Source of the DNA: Candidatus Poriferihabitaceae bacterium | Lineage (GTDB): Bacteria; Pseudomonadota; Gammaproteobacteria; Arenicellales; Poriferihabitantaceae | Reading direction: 5' to 3' | Assembly: GCA_965214055.1 (NCBI GenBank) | Contig: OZ243931.1 | Location: forward strand, 1,169,186 to 1,233,185 | Length of the DNA stretch: 64,000 nt | Shown here: positions 9,444 to 64,000 of the stretch, piece by piece | How the letters are laid out: each line of letters starts with the position of its first letter | Position numbering within the stretch: position 1 is the first letter of the stretch | Notes under the pieces: generated by a model | The model's database searches: none | Told to the model about the DNA's origin: nothing | The model's input: only the letters and a program-made list of their open reading frames with translations | Made by a program: the position numbers and the translations under genes

Positions 9444-9812
9444 TCATGCATCCAGTTTTCGGGGTTTTCCGGCTTCATTCAGGCGATTCAGATATCGCTG
9501 CCAGTTTTCATCCTGGGATTTGCCAAGCCTGTACAGCGTGTCCCAGGAAAAGATGCCGGTGTCGTGCCCATCATCAAACACCGGTTTGATCGCGTAGTTC
9601 CCCACCGGTTCGATATTATCGATGTTGACGTCTTCCTTGCCGACCTGTAACACGTCCTGGCCTGGACCATGTCCCTGCACTTCAGCCGAAGGGGAATGTA
9701 CCCGCAGGTACTCGCAACTCATTTCAAAGGTTTCATCCCCAAACGAAACCGTCAGCATCCGGGTACGGCGGTTCAGGTTGATTTCCGTAGGTGTGTGCTC
9801 GCTCATGAACAA
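9444..9812 (-). CDS. DUF971 (gamma-butyrobetaine hydroxylase-like N-terminal domain) protein
   Basis: [17 protein letters not shown]...[31 protein letters not shown] is the DUF971 pattern. The gene is directly upstream of ubiE. Confidence 0.8.
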
Positions 9813-10027
9813 ATCCGGTCGATGGTAAAGCGGCTATTGTACCTGAATGGAGCGAACCCGGTATGCGGTTGCTCCGCTGGCCATGGTGAACAACCGGTCC
9901 GTCCCTGCACCCGCCCGCAAAAAGATGCTCTTCCACGCTCCCGCTCCAGGGGCCTGAAATTCCGGGTCACCCGGAGAACCATTCCGTGGGAATCAGGGTA
10001 TTCGAGGGACCGACCCCGAGGGAACCA

Positions 10028-11056
<1,029 letters not shown>

Positions 11057-11087
11057 CTAGGGAGGTTTCATGGCCGCCGATTCCCTT

Positions 11088-21099: not shown

Positions 21100-21278
21100 A
21101 CCGCCATCAATCCTGGCTTGCAGATCAGGCGGTGAGAGTCTGGCGTGTAGATTGACCCGCTTCGTTTAAATGATTTCCATGAATTTCACTCCTATGGAAC
21201 GAGAGACCACGGCGAATGGAACAGTGAAGACCCCGTGCTACGGCAGTGGCGGGTTGTGGAATTTTCCGAGACGAGCGA

Positions 21279-27950: not shown

Positions 27951-28188
27951 GCATCACGATGCGCCGCATCCAGGTTGCCACCACCACCAGCACGACACAG
28001 GCAATGAAACCATACCAGCTGAAGAAACCAAAAAATGCCCACCAGTGCTCGGCGTGCTCGGGGTGCTTTGGGACAAGAAGGTCGAGCAACGTCACCAGGG
28101 CACAGAGTGCAAAAAACACCTGGAGTCCACGGCGCAACCGGGGAGAAAGGGACCTGAATTTTTCAATGGGACTTGTATACATAATCAA
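27928..28188 (-). CDS. small 2-TM membrane protein of unknown function within the Mrp-like cluster
   Basis: The 86-aa ORF has two hydrophobic helices (VFFALCALVTLLDLLV and FFGFFSWYGFIACVVLVVVATW). Its stop overlaps the start of the downstream MrpD-like gene. Confidence 0.55.
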   Translation of the reverse strand: MIMYTSPIEKFRSLSPRLRRGLQVFFALCALVTLLDLLVPKHPEHAEHWWAFFGFFSWYGFIACVVLVVVATWMRRIVMRDEDYYD

Positions 28189-28365
28189 GCCGTATATTCT
28201 GTTGACGGATCATTGAGGTTGCCAACGCAATCGCCTCTGTCCCGCCCAACCGCCTGAGCCCCCAAGGCTGCCTCTCGGTTATAAGTGAGTGGAATTTGAA
28301 TAGAATTGCACATCAGATGACAAGAAAGTGAAATTGCCTGGTAAAGTATATAATTCCCTTTTCAG

Positions 28366-29805: not shown

Positions 29806-31310
29806 GGCCAGCCTCCCGGATTCAACAGGCCCAGCGCCGCGGACGACGCAAGTTCCGTAATCAGGGAGGCATTCAGCCCAAACCAGAGCGCCAACCCGGT
29901 CAGGATGCCCAGCGGCAGCCATTCCACCCAGTGGAGCGACGCCGCGGGGGTCTGCGGTTTCAGGATGGCGGGTTTTGCCCACATGATTTCGACGATTCTC
30001 CAGACATAGGCGGCACTGGCCAGGGACCCGGCGAGTATGGGGATGGCCAGCCACCACCAGCCCTTGTCAACCGCAGCGGTAACGAGCACCCATTTGCTGA
30101 CAAAACCCACCGTGCCTGGCAGGCCAATGAGACTGAGTCCACCGAAAAGCATGATATAGCTGGCAAACCGGTGCTGATGTGCCATGCTGCCGAGGTGCTT
30201 GATCCGTGCCGTCCCGGTCCGGGCAATGATAATCCCCACCGCCATGAAAATCGCCGTCTTGACAATGGCATGGTTAAACAGGTGGAGCAGGGCCGCCTCG
30301 ACCCCCAGCCGGGTCCCCAGACCGATTCCCATGACGATATACGAAACCTGGGCCACACTGGACCAGGCAAACATTCTTTTCAGATTGGACTCCCGCAAGG
30401 CAATGAGCGGCACCACCAGCAACCCGAAAATCGCAACGATAATCAAGACCGTGTCCAACGGCATTTCGATCAGGCCGAAATCCGCACCAAACAGGTCATG
30501 CAAAAACCGGATCATCACGTACAGGCCAACTTTCGTGGCCGTTCCCGACAACAGCACAGTCACGGAATTGGGAGCAAAGCTATAGGCATTCGGAAGCCAG
30601 TCGTGGAGGGGAAACAACGCACACTTCACCCCGACGCCGATAATGAAAAAAGCCAGAGCCAGGACAATCGTCCGGTCCGAACCCCTTTCCGCAATGATCC
30701 GGGACAGGTCTGAAATATTCAGTGTCCCGGTTTGCATGTAGAGCAATCCGATGGACAACAGTATGAAGGTGGCCCCCACGGCTCCTGCCACCAGGTACCG
30801 GAATGCGGACAACAAGGCGAGGGGGTTCCGGCCACAACTGATGAGTGTATAGGTGGCCAGGGAACTGATTTCCAGAAACACGAAAACGTTGAACGCATCG
30901 TTGGTGACCACCATGCCATTGAGACCGGCGATGCACAACAACCAGGAAGTATAGAATGCCGGCCTGGCGGCGGCCCCCAGATTGTCGTCCTTCCTGCCCA
31001 GGCAAAATATCGATGCCAGCATATGGACCAGGTTAATCGTAAACAGGACAAAAACGGTCAGCATGTCGACCCGGTATTCGATTCCCCAGGGGGCGGCCCA
31101 CCCCCCCAGATCATAGATGATGACTGGCTGCTGCTGCACCAGCCCTGCCAGTCCCAGGGTCATCGCCAGCATGGTCCCAGCGGTCAGCACCATGATCCCC
31201 CGGGCCAGCCTCCGACTGCCCAGGATTACGCAAAACGGGGCGACAAGAAGCGGGACAACAACCTGCAGGACGGGCAGGTGGTTCTCCAGCAGGGGGATAA
31301 ATGAATCCAT
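29802..31310 (-). CDS. MrpD/NuoN-family antiporter-like subunit (first paralogue)
   Basis: FVFLEISSLATY, WLPNAYSFAPNSVTVLLSG and HLFNHAIVKTAIFM are present. The start overlaps the mrpC stop (TGATG). Confidence 0.86.
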   Translation of the reverse strand: MDSFIPLLENHLPVLQVVVPLLVAPFCVILGSRRLARGIMVLTAGTMLAMTLGLAGLVQQQPVIIYDLGGWAAPWGIEYRVDMLTVFVLFTINLVHMLASIFCLGRKDDNLGAAARPAFYTSWLLCIAGLNGMVVTNDAFNVFVFLEISSLATYTLISCGRNPLALLSAFRYLVAGAVGATFILLSIGLLYMQTGTLNISDLSRIIAERGSDRTIVLALAFFIIGVGVKCALFPLHDWLPNAYSFAPNSVTVLLSGTATKVGLYVMIRFLHDLFGADFGLIEMPLDTVLIIVAIFGLLVVPLIALRESNLKRMFAWSSVAQVSYIVMGIGLGTRLGVEAALLHLFNHAIVKTAIFMAVGIIIARTGTARIKHLGSMAHQHRFASYIMLFGGLSLIGLPGTVGFVSKWVLVTAAVDKGWWWLAIPILAGSLASAAYVWRIVEIMWAKPAILKPQTPAASLHWVEWLPLGILTGLALWFGLNASLITELASSAALGLLNPGGWP

Positions 31311-31678
31311 CAGGGGACGATCTCCGGCTCTACTTCCGGTTTGTCATCGATTTCATCTTCGTCAATCGTGCCATATGCGTGGCGTATCCTCGTGATCAGG
31401 GCAAGCCCCACCGCTGTGGTGGCCACGCCGACCACGATTGCGGTGAGAATCAGGACATGGGGCACGGGGTTGCTGTAAACGGATACCGCCGCATCCAGGA
31501 TCGGGGCACTGCCGCCTGATTTCTTGCCCATGGAGATAAAGACCAGGAACACGGCAGACTGAAAAATTCCCAGACCCACCAGTTTCTTCACCAGATTGCG
31601 GCTGTCAAGGACAATGATCAGCCCGCATACCAGCAGTATCAGCGCGACCCAGTAATTCAATAGCCCGGGGAAACTCAT
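31310..31678 (-). CDS. mrpC: Mrp antiporter subunit C (NuoK-like)
   Basis: The protein is 122 aa with three TM helices, including GLGIFQSAVFLVFISMG and VPHVLILTAIVVGVATTAVGLAL. There is an ATGA overlap with the upstream mrpB-like gene. Confidence 0.85.
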   Translation of the reverse strand: MSFPGLLNYWVALILLVCGLIIVLDSRNLVKKLVGLGIFQSAVFLVFISMGKKSGGSAPILDAAVSVYSNPVPHVLILTAIVVGVATTAVGLALITRIRHAYGTIDEDEIDDKPEVEPEIVP

Positions 31679-32658
31679 TCTTCCCCCTGTTTGAAACAAT
31701 AATAGAGGGACACCATGGTGCATGAAACCGTCAAGCCGACGCCCAGCTCAATGAGGATGATCCCCAGGTGCTGTCCTGCGGTCCGGGTGTCCCCGAGGAC
31801 CGAATAGTCCAGAAAATTGGCTCCCAGAAACAACCCTGCAACACCAACAAATCCATACAGCAGCACCCCCAGTGCCATCCCCAGGATGACCCACCTGTCT
31901 GAAAGGATTCGTTTCAGCCTCGTCGCGGTGGAAAGCAAGCCATAGGTAATCAACCCGGCCCCCAAAATGACCCCCGCCTGGAAGCCGCCCCCGGGACCGT
32001 AGTCCCCGTGGAACTGTACGTACAGGCCAAACAGGACCACCAGGGGGATCATTCGAAGCAGAACGGTTTTCAACACCGGGTTCGCCATCAGTTCCGGCCC
32101 GGCCCGGCCCTGGGCCCCGGGTGTTTCGGGCGCCTCCCTGTCTTTCGAGCGCAACAGCAAAACCGCCATTCCTGCGGTAAAGATGACCACGACTTCGCCG
32201 AGGGTGTCATACCCCCGATAGCTGGCCAACACCGAAGTGACCACATTGGGGATTCCGATTTCTTCCATGGATTGTCCCAGAAACCGGAGGGCAAGATGCT
32301 GGTGCGCCGGCGCCATGGGGTCCCCGTACATCGGCATGTCCAGCGTGCCGGCCAGCAACAGCACGCCCACCCCCACACCGAGCAGTATGGCCCGGGAAGA
32401 CGGCCATGAAACCACCACCCGGGGTTCATCCTCGGGACGGATCACGGCAAAAAACAATATGGAGGAAATCCCTGCGCCCACCGCCGCTTCCGTAAACGCA
32501 ACGTCCACGGCATCGAGGATGACAAACAGGGTGCAAATGGTAATGCTGTAAATTCCGGACAGAAGAACCAGTGACACCGGGCTTTGAATGTAGACAATGA
32601 CCAGGGTGACCGTCAGCAACAGACAAAGCAGCCCCACATCCGCGACAAGATTGATCAT
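31675..32658 (-). CDS. mrpB: Mrp subunit B fused to an MrpA C-terminal-like (DUF4040) domain
   Basis: The N-terminal part has LDAVDVAFTEAAVGAGISS (DUF4040-like). The C-terminal part has FHGDYGPGGGFQAGVILG (MnhB signature). Confidence 0.8.
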   Translation of the reverse strand: MINLVADVGLLCLLLTVTLVIVYIQSPVSLVLLSGIYSITICTLFVILDAVDVAFTEAAVGAGISSILFFAVIRPEDEPRVVVSWPSSRAILLGVGVGVLLLAGTLDMPMYGDPMAPAHQHLALRFLGQSMEEIGIPNVVTSVLASYRGYDTLGEVVVIFTAGMAVLLLRSKDREAPETPGAQGRAGPELMANPVLKTVLLRMIPLVVLFGLYVQFHGDYGPGGGFQAGVILGAGLITYGLLSTATRLKRILSDRWVILGMALGVLLYGFVGVAGLFLGANFLDYSVLGDTRTAGQHLGIILIELGVGLTVSCTMVSLYYCFKQGEE

Positions 32659-32978
32659 CTCGTGATATCCGTGGAACCGCCGCCGCCGGATTGGTCCCGG
32701 TCCATTCCAGGTCGCAATGCGGCTTTGGCCAGTGCATGGGTGGTCATCGGTGACAGAAAGAATATCAGCACACCAATCAGTGCAACCTTAAAGGCAACCA
32801 CAACCGATCCGGACAGCACCAGCATGCCGAGCAACATCAGCCCGGCCCCCAGGGTGTCAACAATGCTGGCACTGTGCAGCCGGCAGAAAAAATCCGGGAA
32901 CCGAAGCAGGCCGACCCCCCCTACCAGCACCGTCAGGACGCCCAGAAGAAGCAATATGCCGCCGAAAATGTCAATCAT
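32655..32978 (-). CDS. mrpG: Mrp antiporter subunit G
   Basis: GGVGLLRFPDFFCRLHSASIVDTLG is the MnhG/PhaG signature. The protein is 107 aa. Confidence 0.85.
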   Translation of the reverse strand: MIDIFGGILLLLGVLTVLVGGVGLLRFPDFFCRLHSASIVDTLGAGLMLLGMLVLSGSVVVAFKVALIGVLIFFLSPMTTHALAKAALRPGMDRDQSGGGGSTDITR

Positions 32979-33249
32979 TGGCGGACACCGTGTTTCGGTT
33001 CAGGTAATTGACCAGGGCCAGGGAGGTGACATAGTTCACCAGTGCATACAGCAGCGCGATGTCAATATATTCGGGGTGTCCCGTGGCAAACAGGTAAACC
33101 GAAATGAAAAGAATGCTCTTGGAAGTGAATGTATTGGCGGCCAGCATGCGGTCAAACCATGTCGGACCGATGCCGGCACGCCATAGCGAGAGCAGCCCTG
33201 CAATCAACAGCAACACCAGCACAATGAGATAGAGGGCTTCCATCATCAT
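32971..33249 (-). CDS. mrpF: Mrp antiporter subunit F
   Basis: The 92-aa, 3-TM protein has WRAGIGPTWFDRMLA and DIALLYALVNYV, typical of MnhF. The call also rests on its position between the E and G subunits. Confidence 0.8.
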   Translation of the reverse strand: MMMEALYLIVLVLLLIAGLLSLWRAGIGPTWFDRMLAANTFTSKSILFISVYLFATGHPEYIDIALLYALVNYVTSLALVNYLNRNTVSAND

Positions 33250-33734
33250 TCCGGCTGGTCCGATGCCCCGGGGTTTAAATGCAGCACTTTCCCGCGCATC
33301 TTGTTGTCCGCCAGCCCCTGCCGGGAACTTTCAAGCAGGGCGTGAACCTGGATTTCATTCTCGCCGACATCCGTACTCACGGTCCCCGGGGTGAGGGTGA
33401 TGGAATTCGCATAAATCACACGGCCGATTTCATCCAGGGACCCCGTCTTTACCTTGAAGAATTGCGGTGAAATTTTTCCCGGGGAAATCACGGCACCGAT
33501 CACCTGCACATTCGATTTGAATATCTGCACCAGCAGCCAACCCAGGTAATTCAGCTGCCTGATGGGGTGGAACCTGATTTCCGGATGGGATGAATCCATG
33601 GAAATCCTGTGGTATATCCAGCAACAGGCCAGGCAGGACGCCAGGCCAAGAGAAAGCAGCAGACCGGTATAGTACCCGGACAGCAGACACCAGATTCCCG
33701 CGAGAACGATGAGCAGAATGGATGGACGACGCAT
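33246..33734 (-). CDS. mrpE: Mrp antiporter subunit E
   Basis: The protein is 162 aa with two N-terminal TM helices, followed by ANSITLTPGTVS, characteristic of MnhE. It is the first gene of the cluster. Confidence 0.8.
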   Translation of the reverse strand: MRRPSILLIVLAGIWCLLSGYYTGLLLSLGLASCLACCWIYHRISMDSSHPEIRFHPIRQLNYLGWLLVQIFKSNVQVIGAVISPGKISPQFFKVKTGSLDEIGRVIYANSITLTPGTVSTDVGENEIQVHALLESSRQGLADNKMRGKVLHLNPGASDQPE

Positions 33735-33922
33735 CAGCCGTTTACGCCCGGGATTTGCCGGTCTGGTCCACCTTGCATTTCCTCAACAAATCCCCGTCCC
33801 GCCCAGGGGTTCCGGATCACCACGGCAACCCCTGTCATGACCCACGGCGGGTCCGCAGCCTTGCCGCCCTCGATATAGGTCTCCTCCACATACCGCACCA
33901 TTTTTCGGATGTGAAGCGTCAT
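33734..33922 (-). pseudogene. truncated N-terminal relic (~50 conserved aa) of an 'amino acid synthesis' family (AA_synth/DUF1185-like) gene
   Basis: MTLHIRKMVRYVEETYIEGGKAADPPWVMTGVAVVIRNPWAGRGFVEE follows the family N-terminal pattern (IRK...E...E.G...P...A.VIRNP.AGR..ED). Similarity is then lost and a stop occurs at the mrpE start. Full-length members are ~190 aa. Confidence 0.55.
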
Positions 33923-34081
33923 GCCCTGCAGACCCGGAAACCCGGACCCCTGCCCCAGGCCGACGACTGGCCCGGAGCTCGACCAAACAGAAAACACCTT
34001 GATTCAACCTGTACCATTTTCCTGTCTATTAGGGCGTTATGGTAGTGTGCCTGACTCAACAGCCCGGTACATCAAAAGCCT

Positions 34082-50615: not shown

Positions 50616-53135
<2,520 letters not shown>

Positions 53136-53289
53136 TTATCCTTATTAATCAAATGTTTATGGTTTACCGGATTTTCAGAGAAATTCAGGCGGGGCCCCTT
53201 TGCAGCAGGGAATTCCGGCAAACAGCCGCCTGGTTTTTTGCTGGCCGTTTCTGGATTCCCGGCCACCGGGTTCCGGTGTTCTTCGTCAT

Positions 53290-53305
53290 TGTTTCACGTG
53301 AAACA
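53290..53305. promoter_or_regulatory. parS: parS (ParB/Spo0J-binding centromere-like site), perfect 16-bp palindrome TGTTTCACGTGAAACA
   Basis: The site is an exact match to the canonical parS consensus tGTTnCACGTGAAACa. It lies in the origin-proximal dnaN-gyrB spacer. Confidence 0.85.
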
Positions 53306-53401
53306 GTGGGGGATTCTATATTTGGCCTGCCAGACAAAAAGATCACGGGCCGGTTTGTTGATCACTACACCGAGTACAATTCGAGACATGGAGTACCGGG
53401 C

Positions 53402-53900
53402 ATCCGCTATCGTCTTTATCCCAAGACAAAATAAAAGGCCGACATGCTGCATCAGTGCCTGGGGGCCACCCGTTTTGTGTGGAACCATTTCCTTGCCCGG
53501 AACAGGCAAAGAATGAAAGCTCACCGCAACAATGAGTCATTGCCCCGCCCGAAGGGTTCGTTTTTCTCATTGGGAAAAAGTCGGTCCAGTCAAGACGAAA
53601 AACCGGGTGGCTGCAGAAACTCCCCTGTGCGCCGATTCGATATACCCTGAAATACCGTTCGGATGCCAGGAAGCAGTCTTTCGAGTCGGGAAAGGGGTTT
53701 CCGAGGCAACTGGCTTCACACCGAATCGAGAAAGATTGCGGATCAATCCCCGTAAGCGATGGCAATCCCGGATACACCATAGCACCCGTCACGGGGCGGG
53801 ACTCTGGACTTTCGGTCCATTTGATTCCTCGGAAACAAGGGGCAGGGCAATCCGGCAATTTTCCAGCCGACATGCCATGGGGAATTGCGGGAGGTTTCCG
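53402..53900 (+). pseudogene. tnpB: decayed 5' fragment of an IS200/IS605-family tnpB (OrfB) gene
   Basis: IRYRLYPKTK-TAA(stop)-KADMLHQCLGATRFVWNHFLARN matches the TnpB N-terminal signature (YRxRLYPt.eQ...lG.aRFVYNhfL). The match continues after frameshifts as WLQKLP...GKGFPR and ...AIRQFSSRHAMGNCGRF. The RuvC-half and 3' end are absent. Confidence 0.75.
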
Positions 53901-53945
53901 GTCCGCGGACCAGCGGGCCGAACACAGGGGGTGGGTTGTGCAGAT

Positions 53946-53961
53946 TGTTTCACGTGAAACA
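53946..53961. promoter_or_regulatory. parS: parS site, perfect TGTTTCACGTGAAACA (palindrome extends to 22 bp GATTGTTTCACGTGAAACAATC)
   Basis: This is the second exact parS consensus match, 656 bp from the first. Confidence 0.85.
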
Positions 53962-54118
53962 ATCGCATGTTGTGGACCCCTTCGTACTGCCCCGGCGCTC
54001 TGCCCGGCGCGGGACCGGCAATCCGGGTCAGGAACCTGCCATTTCAAGCAAACCGGACAACCACCTGTCCCGGCGTCCCGTCTGCGGTCTTCCCTGGCCC
54101 GGGGTTTTCCGTTGCCTG

Positions 54119-55222
54119 CTACATTCTCATGGGCATCACCAGCCACACGGAATGTTTGTCTCCGGGTTCCCGGAGTACGCAAATTCCATTGTTTCCCTGA
54201 AAATGCATTTCAATTTCGTCTGTTTTCATTGCCTTGGCGGCTTCAACCAGGTAATTGAGATTATACCCCATTGTAAGCGGTTCTCCGGAATACTGCAGTT
54301 CCAGTTCTTCCAACGCTTCTTCATTGTCGGGATTGGTGGAGGTAATTCGCATTACGCCGGGTTCCAGCGCAACTTTCGCTCCCTTGAACTGGTCCACCGT
54401 CAATACAGCGATCCGGTTCAGGGTTCCAATCAATTTCTGCCGATCCAGAACAACCGATTCCTGGATATCCGTTTCCACCACTTCCTTGAATTTCGGAAAA
54501 TTCCCGTCGATTAATTTGGTGATAAGCATGGTTTTCCCCTTGCTCACCTTGAGGTGATTCTTGTTCATCTCCAGCGTCAATTCCTGGTCTTCGTCCACAT
54601 CCAGAAACCGGTTTATTTCCGTAATGCCTTTTCTCGGTATAATCAGTTTCCGGTGGTCTGCGGAATCCAGACTGGTCCCCACATCTGTCTGGGCAAGACG
54701 GTGTCCATCCGTCGCAATGGCACGCAGCGTATTGTCATTCAATTCGAACAACAACCCATTCAGGTAGTACCGGACATCCTGGACAGCCATGGCAAAAGCG
54801 GTTTTTTCCAGAATGGTTTTAAGTGATATCTGCTTGATTTTAAACCTTTCTTCCCAATTGTGAGCCTCAATCCTTGGAAAATCATCGGCTTCCAGTGTCC
54901 GCAGTGTATAGCGGCTTCTGCCCGATGTGACGGTCAGGTTCAAATTATCACGTACTATGGAGATAACGGCATGTTCAGGTAACATACGCACAATATCAAG
55001 GATTATACGGGCTGATACGGTAATTGCGGAATCTTCCCCTTCAACCTGGTCTATGGTTACGGAAATCTCGACTTCAAGGTCAGTTCCCACCAGAGTCAAC
55101 TGGTTGTCCACCAGACTCACATGCAGATTGGACAGGATAGGAAGGGTCTGTTTCTTCTCGACAACGTTTGTTACCAGATTCAGCGCTGGAAGAAATTTTG
55201 ATCTCTCTATAGTTATATTCAT
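54119..55222 (-). CDS. dnaN: DNA polymerase III beta sliding clamp
   Basis: MNITIERSKFLPALNLVTNVVEKKQTLPILSNL and RLIDGNFP-type blocks are present, with a ...MPMRM C-terminus. The start was trimmed to MNITIER. Confidence 0.96.
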   Translation of the reverse strand: MNITIERSKFLPALNLVTNVVEKKQTLPILSNLHVSLVDNQLTLVGTDLEVEISVTIDQVEGEDSAITVSARIILDIVRMLPEHAVISIVRDNLNLTVTSGRSRYTLRTLEADDFPRIEAHNWEERFKIKQISLKTILEKTAFAMAVQDVRYYLNGLLFELNDNTLRAIATDGHRLAQTDVGTSLDSADHRKLIIPRKGITEINRFLDVDEDQELTLEMNKNHLKVSKGKTMLITKLIDGNFPKFKEVVETDIQESVVLDRQKLIGTLNRIAVLTVDQFKGAKVALEPGVMRITSTNPDNEEALEELELQYSGEPLTMGYNLNYLVEAAKAMKTDEIEMHFQGNNGICVLREPGDKHSVWLVMPMRM

Positions 55223-55318
55223 GTCATATATCTTAAGAATAGTTATAGTTAAGCACTGTGGGTTTGTGGGGAACTTCAATATAACGCATTTTTTCAATTA
55301 CTTAAAACCGGAACGTCT

Positions 55319-55417
55319 TGTGGACAACCCCTAGTATAAGGATTGTAAAACGAAATAACATCTTGTGGGAAACTCTTTTCCACCGGTCTGTCCACAACCA
55401 TTGCCAACTTATACACA
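55319..55417. promoter_or_regulatory. cluster of DnaA-box-like 9-mers in the dnaA-dnaN spacer (candidate oriC element or dnaN regulatory region)
   Basis: TGTGGACAA is at 55319-55327 (1 mismatch to TGTGGATAA). TGTGGGAAA is at 55364-55372. TTTTCCACC is at 55376-55384. CTGTCCACA is at 55388-55396. TTATACACA is at 55409-55417 (1 mismatch to TTATCCACA). An AT-rich stretch lies at 55223-55310. Confidence 0.5.
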
Positions 55418-55520
55418 GGCAATCAACAGGGTCCGGGGACAACAATCGCAACGGTATGGCACAGCCTTCCAGGGGGGAAGGCACACAAACGATCGTCAAA
55501 AGGCACGCGCCGGAAGGGAA

Positions 55521-56864
55521 CTAAACGCTGAACAACCTTTTCAGGTTCTTGTAATCTTCCTGGATTTTCAAATCCGTTTTTCTGAGATCGGCAATCTTTC
55601 TGCAGGCATGCAACACCGTGGTATGGTCTCTGCCACCGAACCGGTCTCCGATCTGGGGCAGGCTCAGATTGGTGTGTTCCTTGGCAAAGGCCATGGCCAG
55701 CTGCCTGGGCCGGGCAATTTTACGGGCCCGGTTCTTTGAAAGGATATCCGCAACGCGGATTTGGAAATATTCCGCGACAGTCTGCTGTATGTTCTCAATG
55801 CTGATCCGGCTTTCACGGTAAAGCAGGATATCCCGGAGAGCCTCCCTGGCCAGATTGACATCGATGTCCCGGTCGGAAAATCGGGCGATGGCGAGAATCT
55901 GATGAAGAGCGCCCTCAAGGTCCCGGACATTGGAATGTACCGTATTGGCTACGAAGAAAGCCACGTCATTGGGGAGGTCAATGTCGTGCTTCAAGGCTTT
56001 CTTTTTCAGGATCGCGACCCGGGTTTCCAGCTCGGGAGGGTCGATGCTGACCGTTAACCCGGAACCAAACCGGGAAGTCAACCGTTCTCCCACATTGTCG
56101 ATGGCCTTGGGGATGCGGTCACTGGTAATAACAATCTGACGCTGACCCTCAAGCAGGGTATTGAAAGTGTGAAAAAACTCCTCTTGGGACTGGGTTTTCT
56201 TGGCAAAAAACTGGATATCATCAATAAGCAGGGCGTCCAGTGAACGATAGTACCGCTTGAACTCGTTCATGGTATTGTTTCTCAGGGCCTTGACCATGTC
56301 GTTGACAAACAGTTCCGAATGGATATAGATCACTTTCGCTGTGGGATTGGATTTTAGGATCTGGTTTCCGGTTGCCTGCATCAAATGGGTCTTTCCCAGA
56401 CCCACCCCACCGTAAATAAACAGGGGGTTGAAAGCCATCCCCGGACTTTGGCTGACCTGGATTGCCGCAGCCCGGGCGAGCTGATTGGACTTGCCTTCCA
56501 CATGGGTGTCAAACACATACTCCGCATTCAGGCTGCCACCCGTATATGGAGCGGGGGTCTCAAAGCGCCCTTTTGCCAGGTCCCGGCCGGGGCCATCATT
56601 GATATCGGGTTTTTCCAGGCCATGACTGCCGACTTCAACCTGAACCTGCTTGATGCCGTGGTCCATTCCGATGATGGTTTTTTCAATCTGGGTATAGAGA
56701 TTATCCTTTATGTAATTGAGCACATACCGGTTGGGCGCCAGCAATTTCAGGGTATCTCCCGAGGACAGGGCATGCAGTGGACGGATCCATGCGTTGATAT
56801 CATCCGCTGACAATTCATCCCCCAGTTTATGGAGACAGCTGTCCCAGTGTTGAGTTTTGCTCAA
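55521..56864 (-). CDS. dnaA: chromosomal replication initiator protein DnaA
   Basis: WDSCLHKLGDELSADDINAWIRPL, NPLFIYGGVGLGKTHL, LLIDDIQF and the C-terminal HTH (RDHTTVLHA) are present. Only a TTG at 56864 can supply the conserved N-terminus. Confidence 0.97.
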   Translation of the reverse strand: MSKTQHWDSCLHKLGDELSADDINAWIRPLHALSSGDTLKLLAPNRYVLNYIKDNLYTQIEKTIIGMDHGIKQVQVEVGSHGLEKPDINDGPGRDLAKGRFETPAPYTGGSLNAEYVFDTHVEGKSNQLARAAAIQVSQSPGMAFNPLFIYGGVGLGKTHLMQATGNQILKSNPTAKVIYIHSELFVNDMVKALRNNTMNEFKRYYRSLDALLIDDIQFFAKKTQSQEEFFHTFNTLLEGQRQIVITSDRIPKAIDNVGERLTSRFGSGLTVSIDPPELETRVAILKKKALKHDIDLPNDVAFFVANTVHSNVRDLEGALHQILAIARFSDRDIDVNLAREALRDILLYRESRISIENIQQTVAEYFQIRVADILSKNRARKIARPRQLAMAFAKEHTNLSLPQIGDRFGGRDHTTVLHACRKIADLRKTDLKIQEDYKNLKRLFSV

Positions 56865-57236: not shown

Positions 57237-59747
57237 ATGAAATCAGAGACAAAAGTGGTTGTAATCGGTGGCGGAGTAGTCGGCGTCAGCACGCTTTACC
57301 ATCTCGCCCGCAAGGGCTGGAAGGACTCGGTCCTGTTGGAACGAAAGGAACTGACATCCGGTTCAACCTGGCATGCGGCAGGCCTGCTGCCACTTTTTAA
57401 CATGAGCTACTCCGTAGGCAAGCTGCACCAGTATTCGGTGAGGTTCTACCAGGAACTGGAAGAGGAAACCGGGCTGTCCGTAGGGTTCCAGCAGGTAAGC
57501 AACATCCGGCTGGCCTGTACACAGGACAGAATGGATGAATATCGATATTATGCGGGAGTCGGTAAAACGGTGGGGGTAAAAATACGGTTTTTAACCCCCG
57601 AGCAGGTCAAGGAAGCCTGGCCGATGTGTAATATTGAAGGCCTGGTGGGGGCCATTCAGCATCCGGAAGACGGGTACATACAGCCCAATGACTTGACCAC
57701 CGCACTGGCAAAGGGAGCGAGGAACCATGGGGCGGAGATTTATCGGCATACCTGCGCCACCGGCATCCTGAAACAGGGAGAAGGCTGGCTGGTACAAACG
57801 AATCAAGGCGATATCCGCTGTGAACACGTGGTTTCCTGTACCGGCAATTTTGCCCGTAAAACCGGTGAAATGGTGGGCCTTGACATCCCGGTCATTCCGG
57901 TGCAACACCAGTATATCGTCACCGAGGCCCATCCCGACATTCTTGCCCGAAAAGAGAAGGGACTACCGGAGCAGGGCGTGTTGCGGGAATCGGATGCCGG
58001 GTATTATCTCCGGGAAGAAGCCGGGGGGTTGCTGCTCGGGCCCTACGAGGCCGGGGCACCGTGCTGTTATGTGGATGGCCCGTCCGAAGATTGTGAGAAC
58101 GAATTGTTTCAGGAAGATCTGGACAGGCTGGAGCCCCATATCGAAGCCTGTATCAACCGCGTCCCCGCCTTTGGGGAAAGCGGAGTAAAACAGGTTTATA
58201 ACGGGGCGATTGCGTATACCCCGGATGGCAATCCCATTGTGGGCCCGGCCCCGGGATTGAAGAACTTCTGGTTGAATGAAGGGCACAGTTTTGGCATCAC
58301 TGCCGCGGGGGGGGCCGGGTGGCAGCTTGCGGAATGGATGGTGGATGGTGAGCCGACGGTGGATATGATGGGGGTCGACCCGCGACGATTCGGTCCGTAT
58401 GCATCCCGGGGCTATCTGAAGGAAAAAAACGAGGAAGCGTATCGAAACGTTTTTACCAACCATTTCCCGGATGAGGAAAGAGCCACGGCAACCCCGCTTA
58501 AAACTGCTCCCTGCTATGACCGGATGAAAGCCCTGGGGGCCGTGTTTGGGCATATCTATGGCTGGGAACGGCCCAATTGGTTTGTCCCGAAAGAGTATGA
58601 ATTGCCCAAAGCGGAAATAGGCAGTGGCGATGTGCTCCTGGGCCACAATCATTCGCCGCCACTGGAGGATGGGCGCATCGTGGAAAAATACTCTTTCCGG
58701 CGGTCCAACTATTTCCCGTTTGTCGGCCAGGAGTGCAGGCATGTGCAGGAGAAAGTGGGCCTTCTGGACATGTCCGCTTTCTCGAAATTCATAGTGAGCG
58801 GCCCAGGCGCAGGGGCCTGGCTTGAATCCCTGGTGTGCAATCGCATTCCCAAGGGCGTGGGTCGGATTGGGCTGTGTCACATGTTGACCCTGCGGGGAGG
58901 CGTGCGCTCTGAATTCACGATATTCAAAACCGGACAAAACCAGTATTACCTGGTTTCCGCCGGAGCGATGGAACGCCACGACTGGGATTATCTGATCAAA
59001 AACCGGCCCCGGGACGGAACGGTTGATGTGCAAAAAGTCACCACGCAGTGGGGGGTGCTGGTGCTGGCGGGACCCAAGTCCCGGGCGGTGCTGCAAAAAA
59101 TCACGGACACGGACCTGTCGGACGAGAAGTTCAAATGGCTGACGGGGAAACCCATCAACGTGAATGCGGCCAACGCCTGGGCGTTGAGAGTGAATTATGT
59201 CGGTGAACTCGGGTACGAGTTGCATCACCCCATTGAAATGCAGAACTATATTTTTGATGCGGTCATGGAGGCGGGAGAAGAATTCGGGATTCGGCCGTTT
59301 GGTATCCGTGCCATGGACAGCCTGAGGCTGGAAAAATCATACCGGCTGATTCCCAGGGAAATGTCCATCGAGTACAGCGCATACGAATCCGGGCTGGACC
59401 GGTTTATCCGCCTGGACAAGGAAGAAGACTTTATTGGGAAGCAGGCCTTGATCGATTGGCGGAGTCAGGGATTTGAAAACGCGTTCGTTACCCTGGAGGT
59501 CCATGACGTGGTGGATGCCGATGCGCGGGGGTCCGAAGCCATCTACAGGGATGGAAAACTGGTTGGCAGGGCGACCTCCGGGGGCTATGGGTTCCGGGTG
59601 GAAAAGTCCCTGGCCCTGGGCCTGGTCTCCCCGGAATGGGCTGGAGTGGGGACCGGACTCCAGATCGAGATTCTGGGCCGGCTGTACGATGCCACGGTTA
59701 TTGCAGAATCGCCCTACGACCCGCAGAACAAGGTGCTTCGGTCGTAG
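57237..59747 (+). CDS. FAD-dependent oxidoreductase fused to a GcvT-like aminomethyltransferase domain (dimethylglycine/sarcosine dehydrogenase family)
   Basis: The N-terminus is VVVIGGGVVGVSTLYHLA (DAO domain). The C-terminal half has LLDMSAFSKF, YVGELGYELH and the folate-binding GcvT pattern. The protein is 836 aa. Confidence 0.88.
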   Translation: MKSETKVVVIGGGVVGVSTLYHLARKGWKDSVLLERKELTSGSTWHAAGLLPLFNMSYSVGKLHQYSVRFYQELEEETGLSVGFQQVSNIRLACTQDRMDEYRYYAGVGKTVGVKIRFLTPEQVKEAWPMCNIEGLVGAIQHPEDGYIQPNDLTTALAKGARNHGAEIYRHTCATGILKQGEGWLVQTNQGDIRCEHVVSCTGNFARKTGEMVGLDIPVIPVQHQYIVTEAHPDILARKEKGLPEQGVLRESDAGYYLREEAGGLLLGPYEAGAPCCYVDGPSEDCENELFQEDLDRLEPHIEACINRVPAFGESGVKQVYNGAIAYTPDGNPIVGPAPGLKNFWLNEGHSFGITAAGGAGWQLAEWMVDGEPTVDMMGVDPRRFGPYASRGYLKEKNEEAYRNVFTNHFPDEERATATPLKTAPCYDRMKALGAVFGHIYGWERPNWFVPKEYELPKAEIGSGDVLLGHNHSPPLEDGRIVEKYSFRRSNYFPFVGQECRHVQEKVGLLDMSAFSKFIVSGPGAGAWLESLVCNRIPKGVGRIGLCHMLTLRGGVRSEFTIFKTGQNQYYLVSAGAMERHDWDYLIKNRPRDGTVDVQKVTTQWGVLVLAGPKSRAVLQKITDTDLSDEKFKWLTGKPINVNAANAWALRVNYVGELGYELHHPIEMQNYIFDAVMEAGEEFGIRPFGIRAMDSLRLEKSYRLIPREMSIEYSAYESGLDRFIRLDKEEDFIGKQALIDWRSQGFENAFVTLEVHDVVDADARGSEAIYRDGKLVGRATSGGYGFRVEKSLALGLVSPEWAGVGTGLQIEILGRLYDATVIAESPYDPQNKVLRS

Positions 59748-59821: not shown

Positions 59822-61009
59822 CTACGGTCCCGGTCGGGTGGAGCCGGATTCCCGAATCGTCTCCCGGATGATCCCCCCGGCTTTTTTGATTTGTTCGTCG
59901 GTGATTACCAATGGCGGCAGCAACCGGATTACCGTGGGGCCGGCCGGAAGCACCAGGACCCTTTTTGCGACCAGGGCTTCAATGACCGGTTTGGCTTTTG
60001 ATTTGAGCTCAATCCCGATCATGAGGCCCATCTGGCGGATTTCCCGGATGGGGGCCGGCAGGGGCCGCTGCGCCAGGATATCCCGGAAAAGCTGACCCTT
60101 TCTTCTGGATTCCCCTGCCAGGTCGTGGGTTTCAATATACTGAATGGTTGCCAGCGCCGCGGCACAGGCCAGCGGATTTCCGCCAAAGGTTGAACCGTGT
60201 TTCCCCGCTGCAGGGCCGATGTGGTCCGCACACAGGACCGCGCCCATGGGAACCCCGCCCGCAATCGCTTTGGCCAGGGTCATCATATCCGGAGAAACCC
60301 CGGCATGCTCGCACGCGAACATTTTCCCGGTTCGGGCAAATCCGGTCTGGACTTCATCAATGATCAGCAATATACCGTGGTCCCTGCAAAACCGGCGGAC
60401 CTGTTTGAGATAAGGAATTTCAGCAGGGCGTACGCCGCCTTCACCCTGTACGATTTCCAGCACCACCGCAGCGGTATCCCGGTCCGCGGCCTCCTCGATT
60501 TTCTTCAGGTTGTTAAAGGGAACGAATCGATGTCCCGGGACCAGGGGTTCAAATTCATCCCGCAACCGGAAGGTGGCGCTCAGTGCCCCCAGTGTCCGGC
60601 CATGGAATCCGCGCATGGCGCTGACAAAACCGTGTTTTCCGGTGGTGAGACGTGCAAACTTCAAAGCGGCTTCCATGGCTTCGGTTCCGGAGTTGCATAG
60701 AAATACGCGGTTCAGGCCCCGGGGCGAGAGGGAAACCAGCTTTGCCATCAACTGCCCGCGAATGTCGTTGTAAAAGATTCCCGGACAGGTAATGAGTTTT
60801 TCGGACTGCAGGGCGATGGCCTCGGCGACCGCCTGGTTTCCATGCCCGACACTGGCCACGCCGACGCCGGCGGCACAATCGATGTATTCATGGCCGGAGG
60901 TATCCCAGAGCAAGGCGCCCCGCCCCGCTGCAATGGATACATTTCGCTTCGGGTAGACCTCAAACCCGAACCGGTCTTCCAGCCTGGAGTGGTCAGCAGG
61001 CGAAGTCAT
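59822..61009 (-). CDS. ArgD/LysJ-type class III aminotransferase (acetylornithine / [LysW]-aminoadipate-semialdehyde aminotransferase family)
   Basis: [41 protein letters not shown] and [13 protein letters not shown] are present. The start was trimmed to MTSPADH, giving an ATGA overlap with the upstream kinase gene. Confidence 0.88.
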
Positions 61010-61797
61010 TCGACCTGTGTCCCCCCGCCTGCGAGCCCGGTGCTGACCGGGTTCTTGATTCGGCCATCGCAAATGATCACGCGCCGGACACCGTTTTGCA
61101 CGAGCTTGTTCAGGGCATGTATTTTTCTTTTTATCCTCCCCGTCGCATTGTGTTCCATCCGGGCGAGGTCCGGACCGCTCAGACTGGGAATCAGGGAATC
61201 CGGATCGTTGATGTCTGCCAGCAGGCCCTTCGCCTCGATCAGCTGGATAACGGTCTCAGCATTCAGGGCTTTTTGAAGTTCACAAACAATGTCGTCATTC
61301 TCGGAATTAATGGCAAAGCCATTTTCGTCACAGATGGGAATGGTGATTACGGGGGTGTATCCCCGGGAAATCAGCAGGTCCAGAAGATCGGTGTTGATGG
61401 ACCGCGGTTTTCCCGAAAAATCCCGCTTCAACATTTTTTTGCCGTTTTCCATCACCCGGATTCCCCGATTGCGCCGGCCCTGCACAAGACGTCCATCCAG
61501 GCCCGTAAGCCCCACGGCACTGATGTTGTGAAGGAGGCAAAGTTCCACCAGGCGCTTGTTTCGCAACCCACTGTAGGCCATTAAAATCGCATCCACGGCA
61601 TTTTTGTCAGAAAAAACACTGCTGTACCCGGAAACAGAAGTAATGACTTCCTTGGTAAAACCCATTTTCGAGGCGACCTGGTCACGCAATGCATTGGCAC
61701 CATGGACGATCACAAAGGTTTCTTCCCGTTGAGCCAGGTCCCGGACAATCTCCTCGAGGCGGATACCTGCTCCCCCACCAATTTTTACGATGACCAT
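61006..61797 (-). CDS. ArgB/LysZ-type amino acid kinase ([LysW]-aminoadipate / acetylglutamate kinase family)
   Basis: MVIVKIGGGAG, VIVHGAN, GLRNKRLVELC, GLTGLDGRL and a C-terminal sequence GRIKNPV...GGGTQV closely follow the short LysZ-type architecture (263 aa). Confidence 0.85.
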   Translation of the reverse strand: MVIVKIGGGAGIRLEEIVRDLAQREETFVIVHGANALRDQVASKMGFTKEVITSVSGYSSVFSDKNAVDAILMAYSGLRNKRLVELCLLHNISAVGLTGLDGRLVQGRRNRGIRVMENGKKMLKRDFSGKPRSINTDLLDLLISRGYTPVITIPICDENGFAINSENDDIVCELQKALNAETVIQLIEAKGLLADINDPDSLIPSLSGPDLARMEHNATGRIKRKIHALNKLVQNGVRRVIICDGRIKNPVSTGLAGGGTQVE

Positions 61798-61804
61798 TGG
61801 AAAC

Positions 61805-62452
61805 CTACTTCAGGTCGAAAACACCAATTTTGCGGTTGGCCACCGGCTGCCAGCGGCCATCGGATACGGGGTAAGGCTGTGAACAGATGATCCGGGTATT
61901 CCCGGACCTCGACGCATGAAGCTGAAAGTAATCCGGGTCTTCATTGAAGTGGCAGCAGTAATGAACCTGTTCCCTGTTTGCGAGAATAAAATTGAGGGCC
62001 CGGATGTGGCGCGTCCGTTTGCGGATCACCGCCACACTTTTGGTGATGGCCTCAGCGCGATTACCCCGGTCAAACCGTTTCAGGGTATTGAATACCTTTT
62101 CTGCACCAATGCGGCCCTCCGCCTTGATCCGGACACCGCGCAATTCACCGTTAAACAGAAAAACCGCCTCCCCGTCATAAAAGGGCATATTGTTTTCCAC
62201 GGCGATGCCTTCATTTTTGAAAGCACTGCGGGCATGGGCCATAAACAGCCGGCTCGGCGGAAAGGTTCTGCGGTCCTCCCAAATGGGCTGGATGTTGTGG
62301 TGGAGCCGCCACTGGTCGTTGTCATCAAGCCATGCACATCCCCATCCATGTCCCTGGTATTCCCGGCTGTTTTTTGAGAGCGCCTTGAAGTGGTCGAGAT
62401 GGGGCAGTGGATTGATTCCATCCGGGTTTTCAACCAAAAGAAGTCGGCACAT
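61805..62452 (-). CDS. class II (Ntn, N-terminal Cys) glutamine amidotransferase-like protein, YafJ/EgtC-like
   Basis: The protein starts MCRLLL (Cys2 nucleophile). GHGWGCAW, AHARSAFKNEGIAVENNMPF and FLFNGEL follow the GATase class II pattern. It is 215 aa with no synthase domain attached. Confidence 0.78.
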   Translation of the reverse strand: MCRLLLVENPDGINPLPHLDHFKALSKNSREYQGHGWGCAWLDDNDQWRLHHNIQPIWEDRRTFPPSRLFMAHARSAFKNEGIAVENNMPFYDGEAVFLFNGELRGVRIKAEGRIGAEKVFNTLKRFDRGNRAEAITKSVAVIRKRTRHIRALNFILANREQVHYCCHFNEDPDYFQLHASRSGNTRIICSQPYPVSDGRWQPVANRKIGVFDLK

Positions 62453-62470
62453 GGGGTTCGTATGAAGGCG

Positions 62471-63532
62471 TCAGATCGGGTGTAACCCAGGGAATCCCAA
62501 AGCCGTGTTTTCCTCAAAACCGTGCATGATGTTAAATGCCTGGACAGCCTGCCCCGACGCACCCTTCATTAAATTGTCGATTGCACTGATGACCACCAGA
62601 CGATCATGATGCGGGTCGATTTCAAAGCCGATGTCGCAGTAATTGGTGCCGCTGAGCAGCTTGGGTTCAGGATACCGGAACAGGCCGGTTTTTTCCTTGA
62701 CAATCCGGACAAAGGGTTCCATGGAGTACTCATCCCGATAGATTTTCCAGACATCCTTTTCGGTGAGGGGCTGGTTGAGAAAAACATGACAGGTTGCCAG
62801 AATTCCGCGTACCATCTCAATCGAGGTCGCCGAAAACAGAATTTTGGAATCCTTGCCGAGTTCCTGAAGCATTTCGGCGACATGGCGGTGCCCGGTGGGC
62901 TTGTAGGACCGCACCGCCCCGCTTCGTTCAGGGTGATGGCTGGCATCCGAGGCGCTGTTGCCGCCTTCGCTCGATCCGGCCTTGACTTCAATGACGGACT
63001 GGTCGGCCAGGCCGCGCTTGAAAATGGGTCCCAGGGCAAGCAGGGTTGCCGTGGCATTGCACCCTGCGCCGGTGACGTACTGTGCGTGGCGGATTGCGGA
63101 CCGGTTGATTTCGGGAATCCCGTAAACGAATTCCTTCAAAACCGCTGGCTGGAGGTGGGGGTGGCCGTACCATTTTTCATAGGCTTCGGCATCATTCAGC
63201 CGGAAATCGGCGCTCAGGTCGATGATTCGGGGGGCGAGGGTTTTGAAATAATCGAACCGCTTCATGGCCTGCCCATGTGGAAGGCTGAGGAACAGGACAT
63301 CACACTCACACAGGTCTGAAACCCGGCAAAACCGCAGGGAGGTCACTTTGCGCAGGTTTGGGTGGACCCGACCCACAAGCTTGCCGGAAAACCGTTCCGA
63401 GGTCACCTGGTGGATGTCGACATGGGGGTGGTCCAGGAGGAGGCGGATGAGCTCTCCTCCACCGTACCCGCTGCCGCCGACGATTGACACACGAAGCTTT
63501 CGGGGGGGTGCCGACCCCGGCGAGTGCTTCAC
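62471..63532 (-). CDS. ArgC/LysY-type N-acyl-gamma-glutamyl/aminoadipyl-phosphate reductase
   Basis: VSIVGGSGYGGGELIRLLLDHP and GAGCNATATLLAL (active-site Cys) are present, with a C-terminal sequence DNLMKGASGQAVQ. A GTG start at 63532 is preceded by GGGGG, and an alternative GTG lies at 63550. Confidence 0.87.
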   Translation of the reverse strand: MKHSPGSAPPRKLRVSIVGGSGYGGGELIRLLLDHPHVDIHQVTSERFSGKLVGRVHPNLRKVTSLRFCRVSDLCECDVLFLSLPHGQAMKRFDYFKTLAPRIIDLSADFRLNDAEAYEKWYGHPHLQPAVLKEFVYGIPEINRSAIRHAQYVTGAGCNATATLLALGPIFKRGLADQSVIEVKAGSSEGGNSASDASHHPERSGAVRSYKPTGHRHVAEMLQELGKDSKILFSATSIEMVRGILATCHVFLNQPLTEKDVWKIYRDEYSMEPFVRIVKEKTGLFRYPEPKLLSGTNYCDIGFEIDPHHDRLVVISAIDNLMKGASGQAVQAFNIMHGFEENTALGFPGLHPI

Positions 63533-63542
63533 CCCCGGCAGA

Positions 63543-64000
63543 CTAGTCACGGGTGGCCCGGGAGAGGATGTAATCCACCACCCTGCCGGGGATGTTGACC
63601 CCGGTCGTGTCAATACTGTTTCTGAATTCCATGGTGTAGTTGACCTCGTTCACCAACAGGCCGTCTCCGGATTCGAACAAATCCACCGCCAGCAGTCCGC
63701 CGCCAACGGCCCGGGCGGCTTTGGCACAGATCTCAGCGAGGTCATGGTCCACCGGACAGTTCGTTGCGGTGGCCCCTCGCGCGGTATTGGTAATCCAGTG
63801 GTCAGAACGCCGGTAAATGGCGGCAATGCACTGGTCATCCACCACGAATGCACGGATATCGCGGCCTTTTTTGGCGATGTACTTTTGTATAAAAAATATG
63901 GAATGGTGATAGCTGCCGAGAACCGTCTTGTGCTCAAGAATGGTTTCCGCGGCGTCCCGGTCATTGATTTTTGACAACAGCCGGCCCCAGGATCCCACCG
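63543..64000 (-). CDS. RimK/LysX-type ATP-grasp ligase, C-terminal part (5' end lies right of the window)
   Basis: [47 protein letters not shown]...[29 protein letters not shown] is the LysX/RimK pattern. The frame is open to the window edge. Confidence 0.85.

Follow-up and report, generated by a model that had tools for sequence, protein, structure and literature searches.

An EgtC-like amidohydrolase gene embedded in the LysW-type lysine operon of a Candidatus Poriferihabitaceae bacterium: a candidate enzyme for lysine release and carrier deamidation

Annotation of 64,000 nucleotides of contig OZ243931.1 from a Candidatus Poriferihabitaceae bacterium (the whole stretch is called the window hereafter) revealed five co-directional minus-strand open reading frames (ORFs) at positions 59822-64000. 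They were identified as lysX, which is cut by the window edge, lysY, a gene coding for a 215-aa protein of the N-terminal nucleophile (Ntn) hydrolase type, lysZ and lysJ (Table 1), that is, an operon for biosynthesis on the carrier protein LysW in which the Ntn gene, the subject of this report, is embedded. The spacers are 10 nt between lysX and lysY (with the lysY start placed by start-codon analysis), 18 nt between lysY and the Ntn gene and 7 nt between the Ntn gene and lysZ, while the lysZ stop overlaps the lysJ ATG by 4 nt (ATGA). An earlier interpretation made from the DNA letters alone (the sequence-only reading) had described this tight packing of five genes, and both the ORF map and the family models bore it out. 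Its impression that the window is gammaproteobacterial also held, the DNA being about 93% identical to contigs of metagenome-assembled genomes (MAGs) of the Arenicellales (Gammaproteobacteria).

Table 1. Genes of the LysW-type operon, in window positions.
Gene	Position	Strand	Product and features
lysJ	59822-61009	minus	395 aa, ATG at 61009; class-III aminotransferase for LysW-bound semialdehyde; PF00202
lysZ	61006-61797	minus	263 aa; [LysW]-aminoadipate kinase; NF010659 247.6 vs cut-off 223; PF00696
Ntn gene	61805-62452	minus	215 aa; MCRLL...AHARSA...NNMPF; Cys2 amidohydrolase, class II glutamine-amidotransferase fold (predicted)
lysY	62471-63532	minus	353 aa, GTG start at 63532; contains GAGCNATA; LysW-aminoadipyl-phosphate reductase, ArgC/LysY family; PF01118, PF22698
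lysX (C-terminal 151 codons)	63543-64000	minus	ATP-grasp LysW-aminoadipate ligase, cut by window edge

Comparison with curated models indicated that the ligase and the kinase are not ordinary RimK and ArgB proteins, a distinction on which the sequence-only reading had depended. The LysX fragment of the window scored 209 bits against TIGR02144 (LysX_arch) as a partial sequence, its full-length orthologue from the same-genus locus L001 scored 330.1 against an equivalog cut-off of 275.6, and LysZ likewise passed its equivalog cut-off. LysY scored 389.4 against a cut-off of 233.6 with TIGR01850, a model common to ArgC and LysY. LysJ passed the argD-family model TIGR00707 (416.7, cut-off 410) and remained below the LysJ-specific models (LysJ_Th_th 415.6; 415 vs 700).

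The sole match of the Ntn protein in the curated libraries was a sub-threshold one to EgtC (TIGR03442, 42.1 bits against a cut-off of 218.65). No Pfam match was found at 1e-3, neither NCBIfam nor Pfam holds a model for the family, and an exact-sequence look-up of the window protein returned no record. The family was analysed with protein P0001, which is 98% identical to that of the window. Its homologues form about 3,100 clusters at 90% identity (121 clusters at 50% identity with E<=1e-30) and are labelled in the source databases as 'hypothetical protein' or '(class II) glutamine amidotransferase'. The AlphaFold2 model (pLDDT 90, pTM 0.89) displayed the four-layer alpha-beta-beta-alpha Ntn fold. 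The top Foldseek match of the model was EgtC (TM 0.80, about 20% identity), followed by weaker matches to 1TE5, 3MDN, PurF and GlmS, so that the EgtC-like fold named in the sequence-only reading was recovered; the best sequence match in the PDB was 3MDN (E 2e-7).

Alignment A1 of the family showed that Cys2, R75, N101-G102 and the motif GRIGAEK are invariant and that all full-length members start with MC2R. The conservation of Cys2, which the sequence-only reading had made a condition of its hypothesis, extends to every full-length A1 homologue, and the residue is also kept in the divergent subtypes of loci L097, L128 and L209. Profile alignment of the family with EgtC (hhalign, 94% probability) placed R75 and N101-G102 opposite the AAVRSAT and SHNG segments of EgtC. 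We take R75 to be the arginine that binds the substrate alpha-carboxylate and N101-G102 to be the oxyanion hole, with R73 and N98-G99 as their GlmS counterparts. In GlmS and EgtC a further residue, D123 and D133 respectively, anchors the free alpha-amino group of the substrate. The Ntn family has no conserved Asp there: hhalign put the EgtC Asp in an insertion missing from the family, in a low-confidence region of the alignment, and helix register points to the invariant G116 as the corresponding N-cap position, although the alignment is ambiguous. Since hhalign gave no significant match between the family and the GlmS glutaminase domain, the equivalence with D123 was drawn from EgtC and helix register only. 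Loss of this Asp would fit a gamma-glutamyl donor whose alpha-amine is engaged in a peptide bond, which is suggestive only.

When one genome per GTDB species was scanned, an Ntn relative was detected in at least 574 genomes. Gene neighbourhoods were counted in the best 80 of these species-representative genomes, fetched by Ntn similarity alone, and gene presence was scored by tblastn, which was relied on instead of a greedy ORF caller that gave spurious antisense clusters in high-GC loci. The survey confirmed the placement of the Ntn gene inside LysXYZJ clusters that the sequence-only reading had proposed to look for: lysY lies directly upstream of it in 68 of 71 evaluable loci, lysX upstream in 61/64, lysW upstream in 60/64, and lysZ together with lysJ downstream in 64 of 74. 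The 80 loci belong to Arenicellales, Poriferihabitaceae, SUP05 Thioglobus, Acidiferrobacteraceae and Ectothiorhodospiraceae, and also to Gemmatimonadota, Acidobacteriota (Vicinamibacteria), Desulfobacterota, KSB1, Calditrichota (Calditrichaceae) and DPANN (Woesearchaeota-type) archaea. The arrangement is not due to chance, since the gene order is repeated in dozens of species-level genomes that belong to several phyla. The 10 loci without lysZ and lysJ downstream represent mostly one split-operon clade, eight of them clustering together in a neighbour-joining (NJ) tree.

The split arrangement was seen in loci L032-L035, L039, L040, L043, L047 and L064, from sponge-associated-looking Gammaproteobacteria with genomes of 4-6 Mb; lysW, lysX, lysY and the Ntn gene stay together, and lysZ and lysJ are not found within 3 kb downstream (in L047 they are about 9 kb away). 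In a Poriferihabitaceae genome (L005 / L030) a HepT/MNT (nucleotidyltransferase) toxin-antitoxin pair is inserted between the Ntn gene and lysZ at 11253-11874, and a PIN/MazE pair lies upstream of lysW. Clustering of the neighbours, read by eye, and the tblastn survey identified no gene family beyond the five LysW-pathway genes that is kept across most Ntn loci. PEPCK was considered as a further component and rejected: it is divergent upstream of lysW in a gammaproteobacterial subgroup only (16 loci), which reflects synteny.

Divergent Ntn members with 24-35% identity were still found in operons for LysW or alpha-aminoadipate (AAA) biosynthesis. The order is lysW-X-Y-(HCS)-Z-J-Ntn in L097 and L128, HCS denoting homocitrate synthase, lysW-X-Y-Z-J-Ntn-lysS in L209 and L210, and HCS-Ntn in L211. 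The homologue in L211 (2004-2702, 24% identity) lies between the homocitrate synthase gene and a lysS-like gene and carries HVRT in place of HARS; it may be a variant with a Ser nucleophile or an inactivated copy.

The sequence-only reading had expected a small LysW-like ORF upstream of lysX. Such a gene, coding for a 54-aa LysW, was found directly upstream of lysX in the same-genus loci L001-L003 and L006, and it is expected about 0.4 kb past the edge of the window. These proteins carry two CxxC pairs and the acidic tail EEDWG[E/Q], score 65.2 with TIGR01206 (cut-off 53.2) and match PF21344. Loci L001-L003, whose Ntn protein is 98% identical to that of the window, share the layout PEPCK (minus), lysW-lysX-lysY-Ntn-lysZ-lysJ, a dimethylglycine dehydrogenase-like gene (minus) and dnaA.

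The nature of the product was deduced from the ligase and from linked genes. Signature residues F-I-T-NS define LysX specific for AAA, I-Y-V-GF define ArgX and Y-I-T-NA the bifunctional enzyme (PMC12998189, Table 1). The LysX studied here carries F185-I195-T206-N261-S262, that is F-I-T-NS of the AAA type, and its best PDB match was Thermus LysX (293 bits); Thermococcus LysX/ArgX scored 228 and Sulfurisphaera ArgX 163. Homocitrate synthase is encoded in or beside 13 Ntn-type operons, and L067 and L078 hold the full AAA pathway in one operon, lysW-HCS-homoaconitase L/S-HICDH-lysX-lysY-Ntn-lysZ-lysJ, where HICDH is homoisocitrate dehydrogenase. The gene after Ntn in L209 is lysS, coding for lysine-tRNA ligase (TIGR00499, 524 against a cut-off of 428). 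In the annotation of the 64-kb window itself, genes for homocitrate synthase, homoaconitase and homoisocitrate dehydrogenase were not present. The operon most likely makes L-lysine via AAA, as judged from these sequence features. Ornithine or arginine as the product was rejected in view of the AAA-type LysX motif, the preference for Thermus LysX over ArgX (293 against 163 bits) and the linked genes for homocitrate synthase, homoaconitase, homoisocitrate dehydrogenase and LysS.

In canonical operons the release of the product is assigned to LysK, a metallopeptidase of the M20 family. Two canonical operons sampled, neither of which contains an Ntn gene, end with an M20 gene: HCS-HACN-lysW-X-Y-Z-J-(188 aa)-M20 in L206 (Marinithermus) and lysW-X-X-Y-hisS-Z-J-M20 in L207 (Gemmatimonadota). 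The first has a second LysW-like gene of 101 aa (9696-10001) just upstream of lysW, and the second has two tandem LysX paralogues (10331-12036), possibly LysX and ArgX. The M20 sequences of L206 and L207 were used as probes and as a positive control detected each other across phyla at E 1e-77. With them, LysK/M20 was not found in the window or in 135 Ntn-type loci comprising 1.75 Mb (tblastn E<=1e-3; hidden Markov model search E<=1), in agreement with the sequence-only reading, which had seen no LysK-like gene in the operon. The rest of the 64-kb window was annotated as housekeeping genes, with no M20 peptidase. In the divergent operons L097, L128, L209 and L210 the Ntn gene follows lysJ and thus occupies the slot held by the M20 gene in L206 and L207. 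Two other candidates for a general release enzyme were dismissed on frequency: an amidase (PF01425) after lysJ in L005 occurs in only 5 loci and an AA_synth protein (PF06684) in L004 in only 2.

In the canonical pathway AAA or Glu is joined to LysW through the gamma-carboxyl group that its C-terminal Glu carries; the EDWGE end is conserved, and mutation E54A leads to auxotrophy (PMC10433800). The LysW encoded by the closest relatives of the window ends in ...EEDWGQ and so lacks, as translated, the C-terminal Glu that the canonical carrier requires. Among 63 complete carriers of Ntn-type operons, 29 end in EDWGQ and 34 in EDWGE, while Glu is the last residue of 87 of 91 Thermus LysW homologues and Gln of none, the other 4 resembling error variants. 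The difference in Gln termini (29/63 Ntn-type versus 0/91 Thermus-type) gave p = 1e-13 in the Fisher test, uncorrected for phylogeny. Many carriers of the Thermus-LysW homologue set (P0178-P0210, some of them source-named Trueperaceae) were also seen to lack all four zinc-ribbon cysteines and to keep the EDWGE tail.

A metagenome scan for DNA coding for EEDWGQ followed by a stop, which enriches for Gln by design, recovered 50 real Gln-terminated carriers; at least 2.7 kb of downstream sequence was available for 18, and the Ntn gene was present in 15 of these. The three Gln-carrier loci without a visible Ntn gene are uninformative: lysW is detached from the operon in one (as in the archaeal locus L078), and two are of the Ntn-after-lysJ subtype, with that position beyond the contig end. 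Parsimony on NJ trees of LysX, LysY and Ntn, built from tblastn-derived segments, required at least 4 switches between Glu and Gln in the unbiased set of 57 operons; with the Gln-targeted loci added (72 operons) the minimum rose to 9.

An ATP-grasp ligase is unable to activate a gamma-carboxamide, and for this reason Gln-terminated carriers need a deamidase; to judge from their sequences, they would require post-translational conversion to the Glu form. The Ntn protein is the only amidohydrolase encoded in the operon, and glutamine deamidation is the defining reaction of the class II glutamine-amidotransferase fold.

We consider it probable that gamma-glutamyl amides at the LysW C-terminus are the substrate of the EgtC-like Ntn hydrolase, which by cleaving them would take the place of LysK in lysine release and would also deamidate LysW-Gln in the manner of Dop, the depupylase discussed below. 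That the Ntn protein might be the release enzyme had been put forward in the sequence-only reading; the comparative data, including the Gln/Glu dimorphism of LysW, lend it strong support, and we infer the substrate and both activities from them. In the proposed pathway LysX would ligate aminoadipate to the C-terminal residue of LysW at the gamma-carboxylate, and the carrier-bound intermediate would be phosphorylated by LysZ, reduced by LysY and transaminated by LysJ. The gamma-glutamyl amide bond between lysine and LysW would then be hydrolysed by the 215-aa Ntn protein and not by the M20 metallopeptidase LysK. Once Met1 has been removed, the N-terminal Cys, now free, would attack the gamma-carbonyl of the terminal residue of LysW and expel the leaving group, which would be lysine from a loaded carrier and ammonia from a newly made Gln-terminated one; hydrolysis of the thioester would regenerate LysW-Glu. 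The same chemistry would thus turn ...EDWGQ carriers into ligation-competent ...EDWGE carriers. Such a dual activity would make Gln and Glu near-neutral alternatives, and hence account for their repeated interchange, only where Ntn is present. Maturation alone would not be the task of the enzyme, because the 34 operons of the Glu type keep the Ntn gene.

Several observations weigh against this interpretation. The Ntn gene mostly lies between lysY and lysZ and not at the operon end. The distant homologue in L211 has Ser2 and FDG instead of Cys2 and FNG. The argument from the lost Asp, which depends on an ambiguous alignment and helix-register reasoning alone, is suggestive only. For the genome of the window the Gln terminus is deduced from relatives whose DNA is 86-93% identical, lysW itself lying outside the window. 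The presence of an AAA route to lysine in Gram-negative hosts that need meso-diaminopimelate for the cell wall is unexplained. Finally, the LysK search reached about 10 kb around each operon plus the 64-kb window only, and Thermus lysJ and lysK presumably lie outside the main cluster, so that an unlinked M20 enzyme could still release lysine.

In the main rival explanation the Ntn protein would serve the carrier only, by deamidating new LysW-Gln or by editing mis-loaded or dead-end conjugates such as LysW-gamma-Glu, and an unlinked M20 enzyme (LysK, ArgE or DapE) would release lysine. LysK need not be linked to the operon, as illustrated by L208, where lysW-X-Y-Z occur with neither lysJ nor lysK nearby, and by themselves the data on the Gln terminus require just a deamidase. 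Against this, more than half of the Ntn-type operons (34/63) encode LysW-Glu, which needs no maturation, and keep the Ntn gene with its catalytic residues intact; the divergent operons place Ntn in the post-lysJ slot of M20; and no M20 gene was found in the 1.75 Mb of flanks, as compared with an in-operon M20 gene in 2/3 canonical operons sampled. By analogy with EgtC and Dop, the chemistry needed to cleave the gamma-amide in LysW-Gln would also equip an enzyme for the N-substituted amide. A role confined to the carrier is for these reasons judged unlikely.

The sequence-only reading had offered as its second option that the Ntn protein amidates an intermediate to yield a non-proteinogenic amino acid, that is, that it acts as a true glutamine amidotransferase subunit, taking ammonia from free glutamine and passing it to a partner. 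The class II fold with its Cys1, Arg and Asn-Gly is compatible with this, and some databases name the homologues 'class II glutamine amidotransferase'. The proposal found no support in the comparison: the protein consists of one stand-alone domain of 215 aa of the glutaminase type, to which no synthase partner is fused and beside which none is conserved, the operon consists of exactly the five canonical LysW-pathway genes besides it, and the linked homocitrate synthase, homoaconitase, homoisocitrate dehydrogenase and lysS genes point to plain lysine. It also leaves the Gln/Glu dimorphism of LysW without explanation, and the closest structural relative of the protein, EgtC, is a hydrolase, the true amidotransferases PurF and GlmS ranking lower. 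We accordingly give it little credence.

A transamidase appears equally improbable. Here the gamma-glutamyl thioester of LysW, formed from LysW-Gln or from a loaded carrier, would be passed to the alpha-amine of aminoadipate, for ATP-free loading or for exchange of product and substrate; amines can in principle resolve Ntn thioesters, and the Gln terminus would be put to use. The ATP-dependent loader LysX is nevertheless kept in essentially all operons, above its equivalog cut-off, a Gln terminus could serve only once per carrier molecule, and no precedent was found within the EgtC-like group. That the Ntn gene is a conserved passenger of unrelated function is hardly credible: some operons do hold unrelated insertions (the toxin-antitoxin pair in L005, hisS in L207) and the function of Ntn is deduced indirectly, but the linkage spans phyla, 24-98% identity and two operon positions, and Ntn co-varies with a chemical feature of its carrier.

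The proposed release and deamidation by Ntn can be set beside four known systems. The Ntn-type operons share with the LysW pathway of Thermus thermophilus a zinc-ribbon LysW with the acidic EDWG-x tail, the enzymes LysX, LysZ, LysY and LysJ, the F-I-T-NS motif and, in some of the operons, the linkage to homocitrate synthase, homoaconitase and homoisocitrate dehydrogenase. They differ from it in that no linked LysK was found in the loci searched and a Cys-Ntn protein is embedded instead, in the Gln terminus of about half of the carriers, and in their hosts, which are mostly mesophilic marine, sponge-associated and soil bacteria and not thermophiles or archaea.

In the ergothioneine pathway the gamma-glutamyl group of an intermediate is removed by EgtC, a stand-alone Ntn hydrolase with Cys1 (PMC9103826). 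Like the Ntn protein, EgtC (PDB 4ZFJ, 4ZFK, 4ZFL) is a stand-alone class II domain of about 220 aa with an N-terminal Cys and equivalents of the Arg and Asn-Gly, and it hydrolyses a gamma-glutamyl amide to free an amine. The two differ in sequence (about 20% identity), in context (lysWXYZJ and not egtABDE) and in the region of EgtC Asp133, which is remodelled into the invariant GRIGAEK; moreover, the proposed donor for Ntn would be the C-terminal residue of a protein, whereas that of EgtC is a free gamma-glutamyl compound. The score far below the EgtC cut-off and the missing egtABDE context led us to reject the Ntn protein as an EgtC orthologue. The YafJ-type proteins with a class II glutamine amidotransferase domain (PDB 3MDN, 1TE5), which are uncharacterised, are also stand-alone and have an N-terminal Cys; they gave a much weaker structural match (TM 0.61-0.67) and no LysW context has been reported for them.

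A functional precedent is the Pup/PafA/Dop system of Actinobacteria, which is an analogy and not a homology. Dop deamidates Pup-Gln and also cleaves the gamma-glutamyl isopeptide of Pup, and Pup is encoded with a Gln or a Glu end depending on the lineage, a single hydrolase thus serving both reactions (PMC8599861). Unlike the Ntn protein, Dop has a glutamine-synthetase fold and is homologous to its ligase, and Pup tags proteins for degradation while LysW carries a biosynthetic intermediate.

In a literature search, in which most subscription journals were not covered, neither a LysW operon with an Ntn or class II amidotransferase-fold protein nor a Gln-terminated LysW was found described; the one paper naming LysW together with glutaminase is unrelated. 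The Ntn-type LysW operon is apparently an undescribed variant of a known pathway. For a broader claim we hold the chances to be even, namely that many mesophilic bacteria and some DPANN archaea have arrived at a convergent 'Dop-like' logic. The carrier would often be made as a Gln-capped pro-form, and one Cys-Ntn amidohydrolase would both activate it and release lysine, as a non-homologous replacement of LysK and as a sixth, unrecognised enzyme family of carrier-protein amino-acid biosynthesis; the AAA route would then be real in marine Gammaproteobacteria (Arenicellales, SUP05, sponge symbionts), Gemmatimonadota and Acidobacteriota.

If Ntn is the release enzyme, hundreds of uncultured lineages, among them SUP05, sponge symbionts, Gemmatimonadota, Acidobacteriota and DPANN archaea, would possess a complete LysW lysine pathway, which annotation tools that require LysK presumably score as incomplete, affecting inferences of auxotrophy and symbiosis from metagenomes. 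It would also be a clear case of non-homologous enzyme displacement, of a metallopeptidase by a Cys-Ntn hydrolase, in a textbook example of pathway evolution. Gln-terminated LysW would be the second known case, Pup/Dop being the first, in which a protein that conjugates through its C-terminal Glu, at the gamma-carboxylate, is encoded as an amidated pro-form. The conversion of LysW-Gln to LysW-Glu predicts a mass shift of +0.98 Da.

Other features of the window were recorded alongside the operon. The presence of gyrB, dnaN and dnaA at 50616-56864 indicated that the operon lies next to the chromosomal replication origin. Between these genes and the lysine operon sits an 836-aa DAO+GCV_T gene (57237-59747) resembling dimethylglycine/sarcosine dehydrogenases, and a further hint of glycine-betaine catabolism comes from a Rieske GbcA-like oxygenase at 24949-26106. 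The adenylate kinase ORF at 11088-12116 codes for 342 aa, of which the Adk models span residues 1-212 only, the remaining 130 or so being an unexplained C-terminal extension or an artefact of the gene boundary. At 19477-21099 lies a gene of the GmrSD type (type IV restriction; PF03235 and PF07510), and adjacent to it, at 21246-22334, one for a NucS-C-domain protein; the pair is found where GC is lowest in this part of the window (0.52 against about 0.57) and is possibly a small acquired defence islet. An operon for a multi-subunit Mrp-type Na+/H+ antiporter (D/A-like, MnhB/MbhD/MbhE subunits) was identified at 26238-34000, where it coincides with a strongly positive AT skew of about +0.2 over 26-34 kb.

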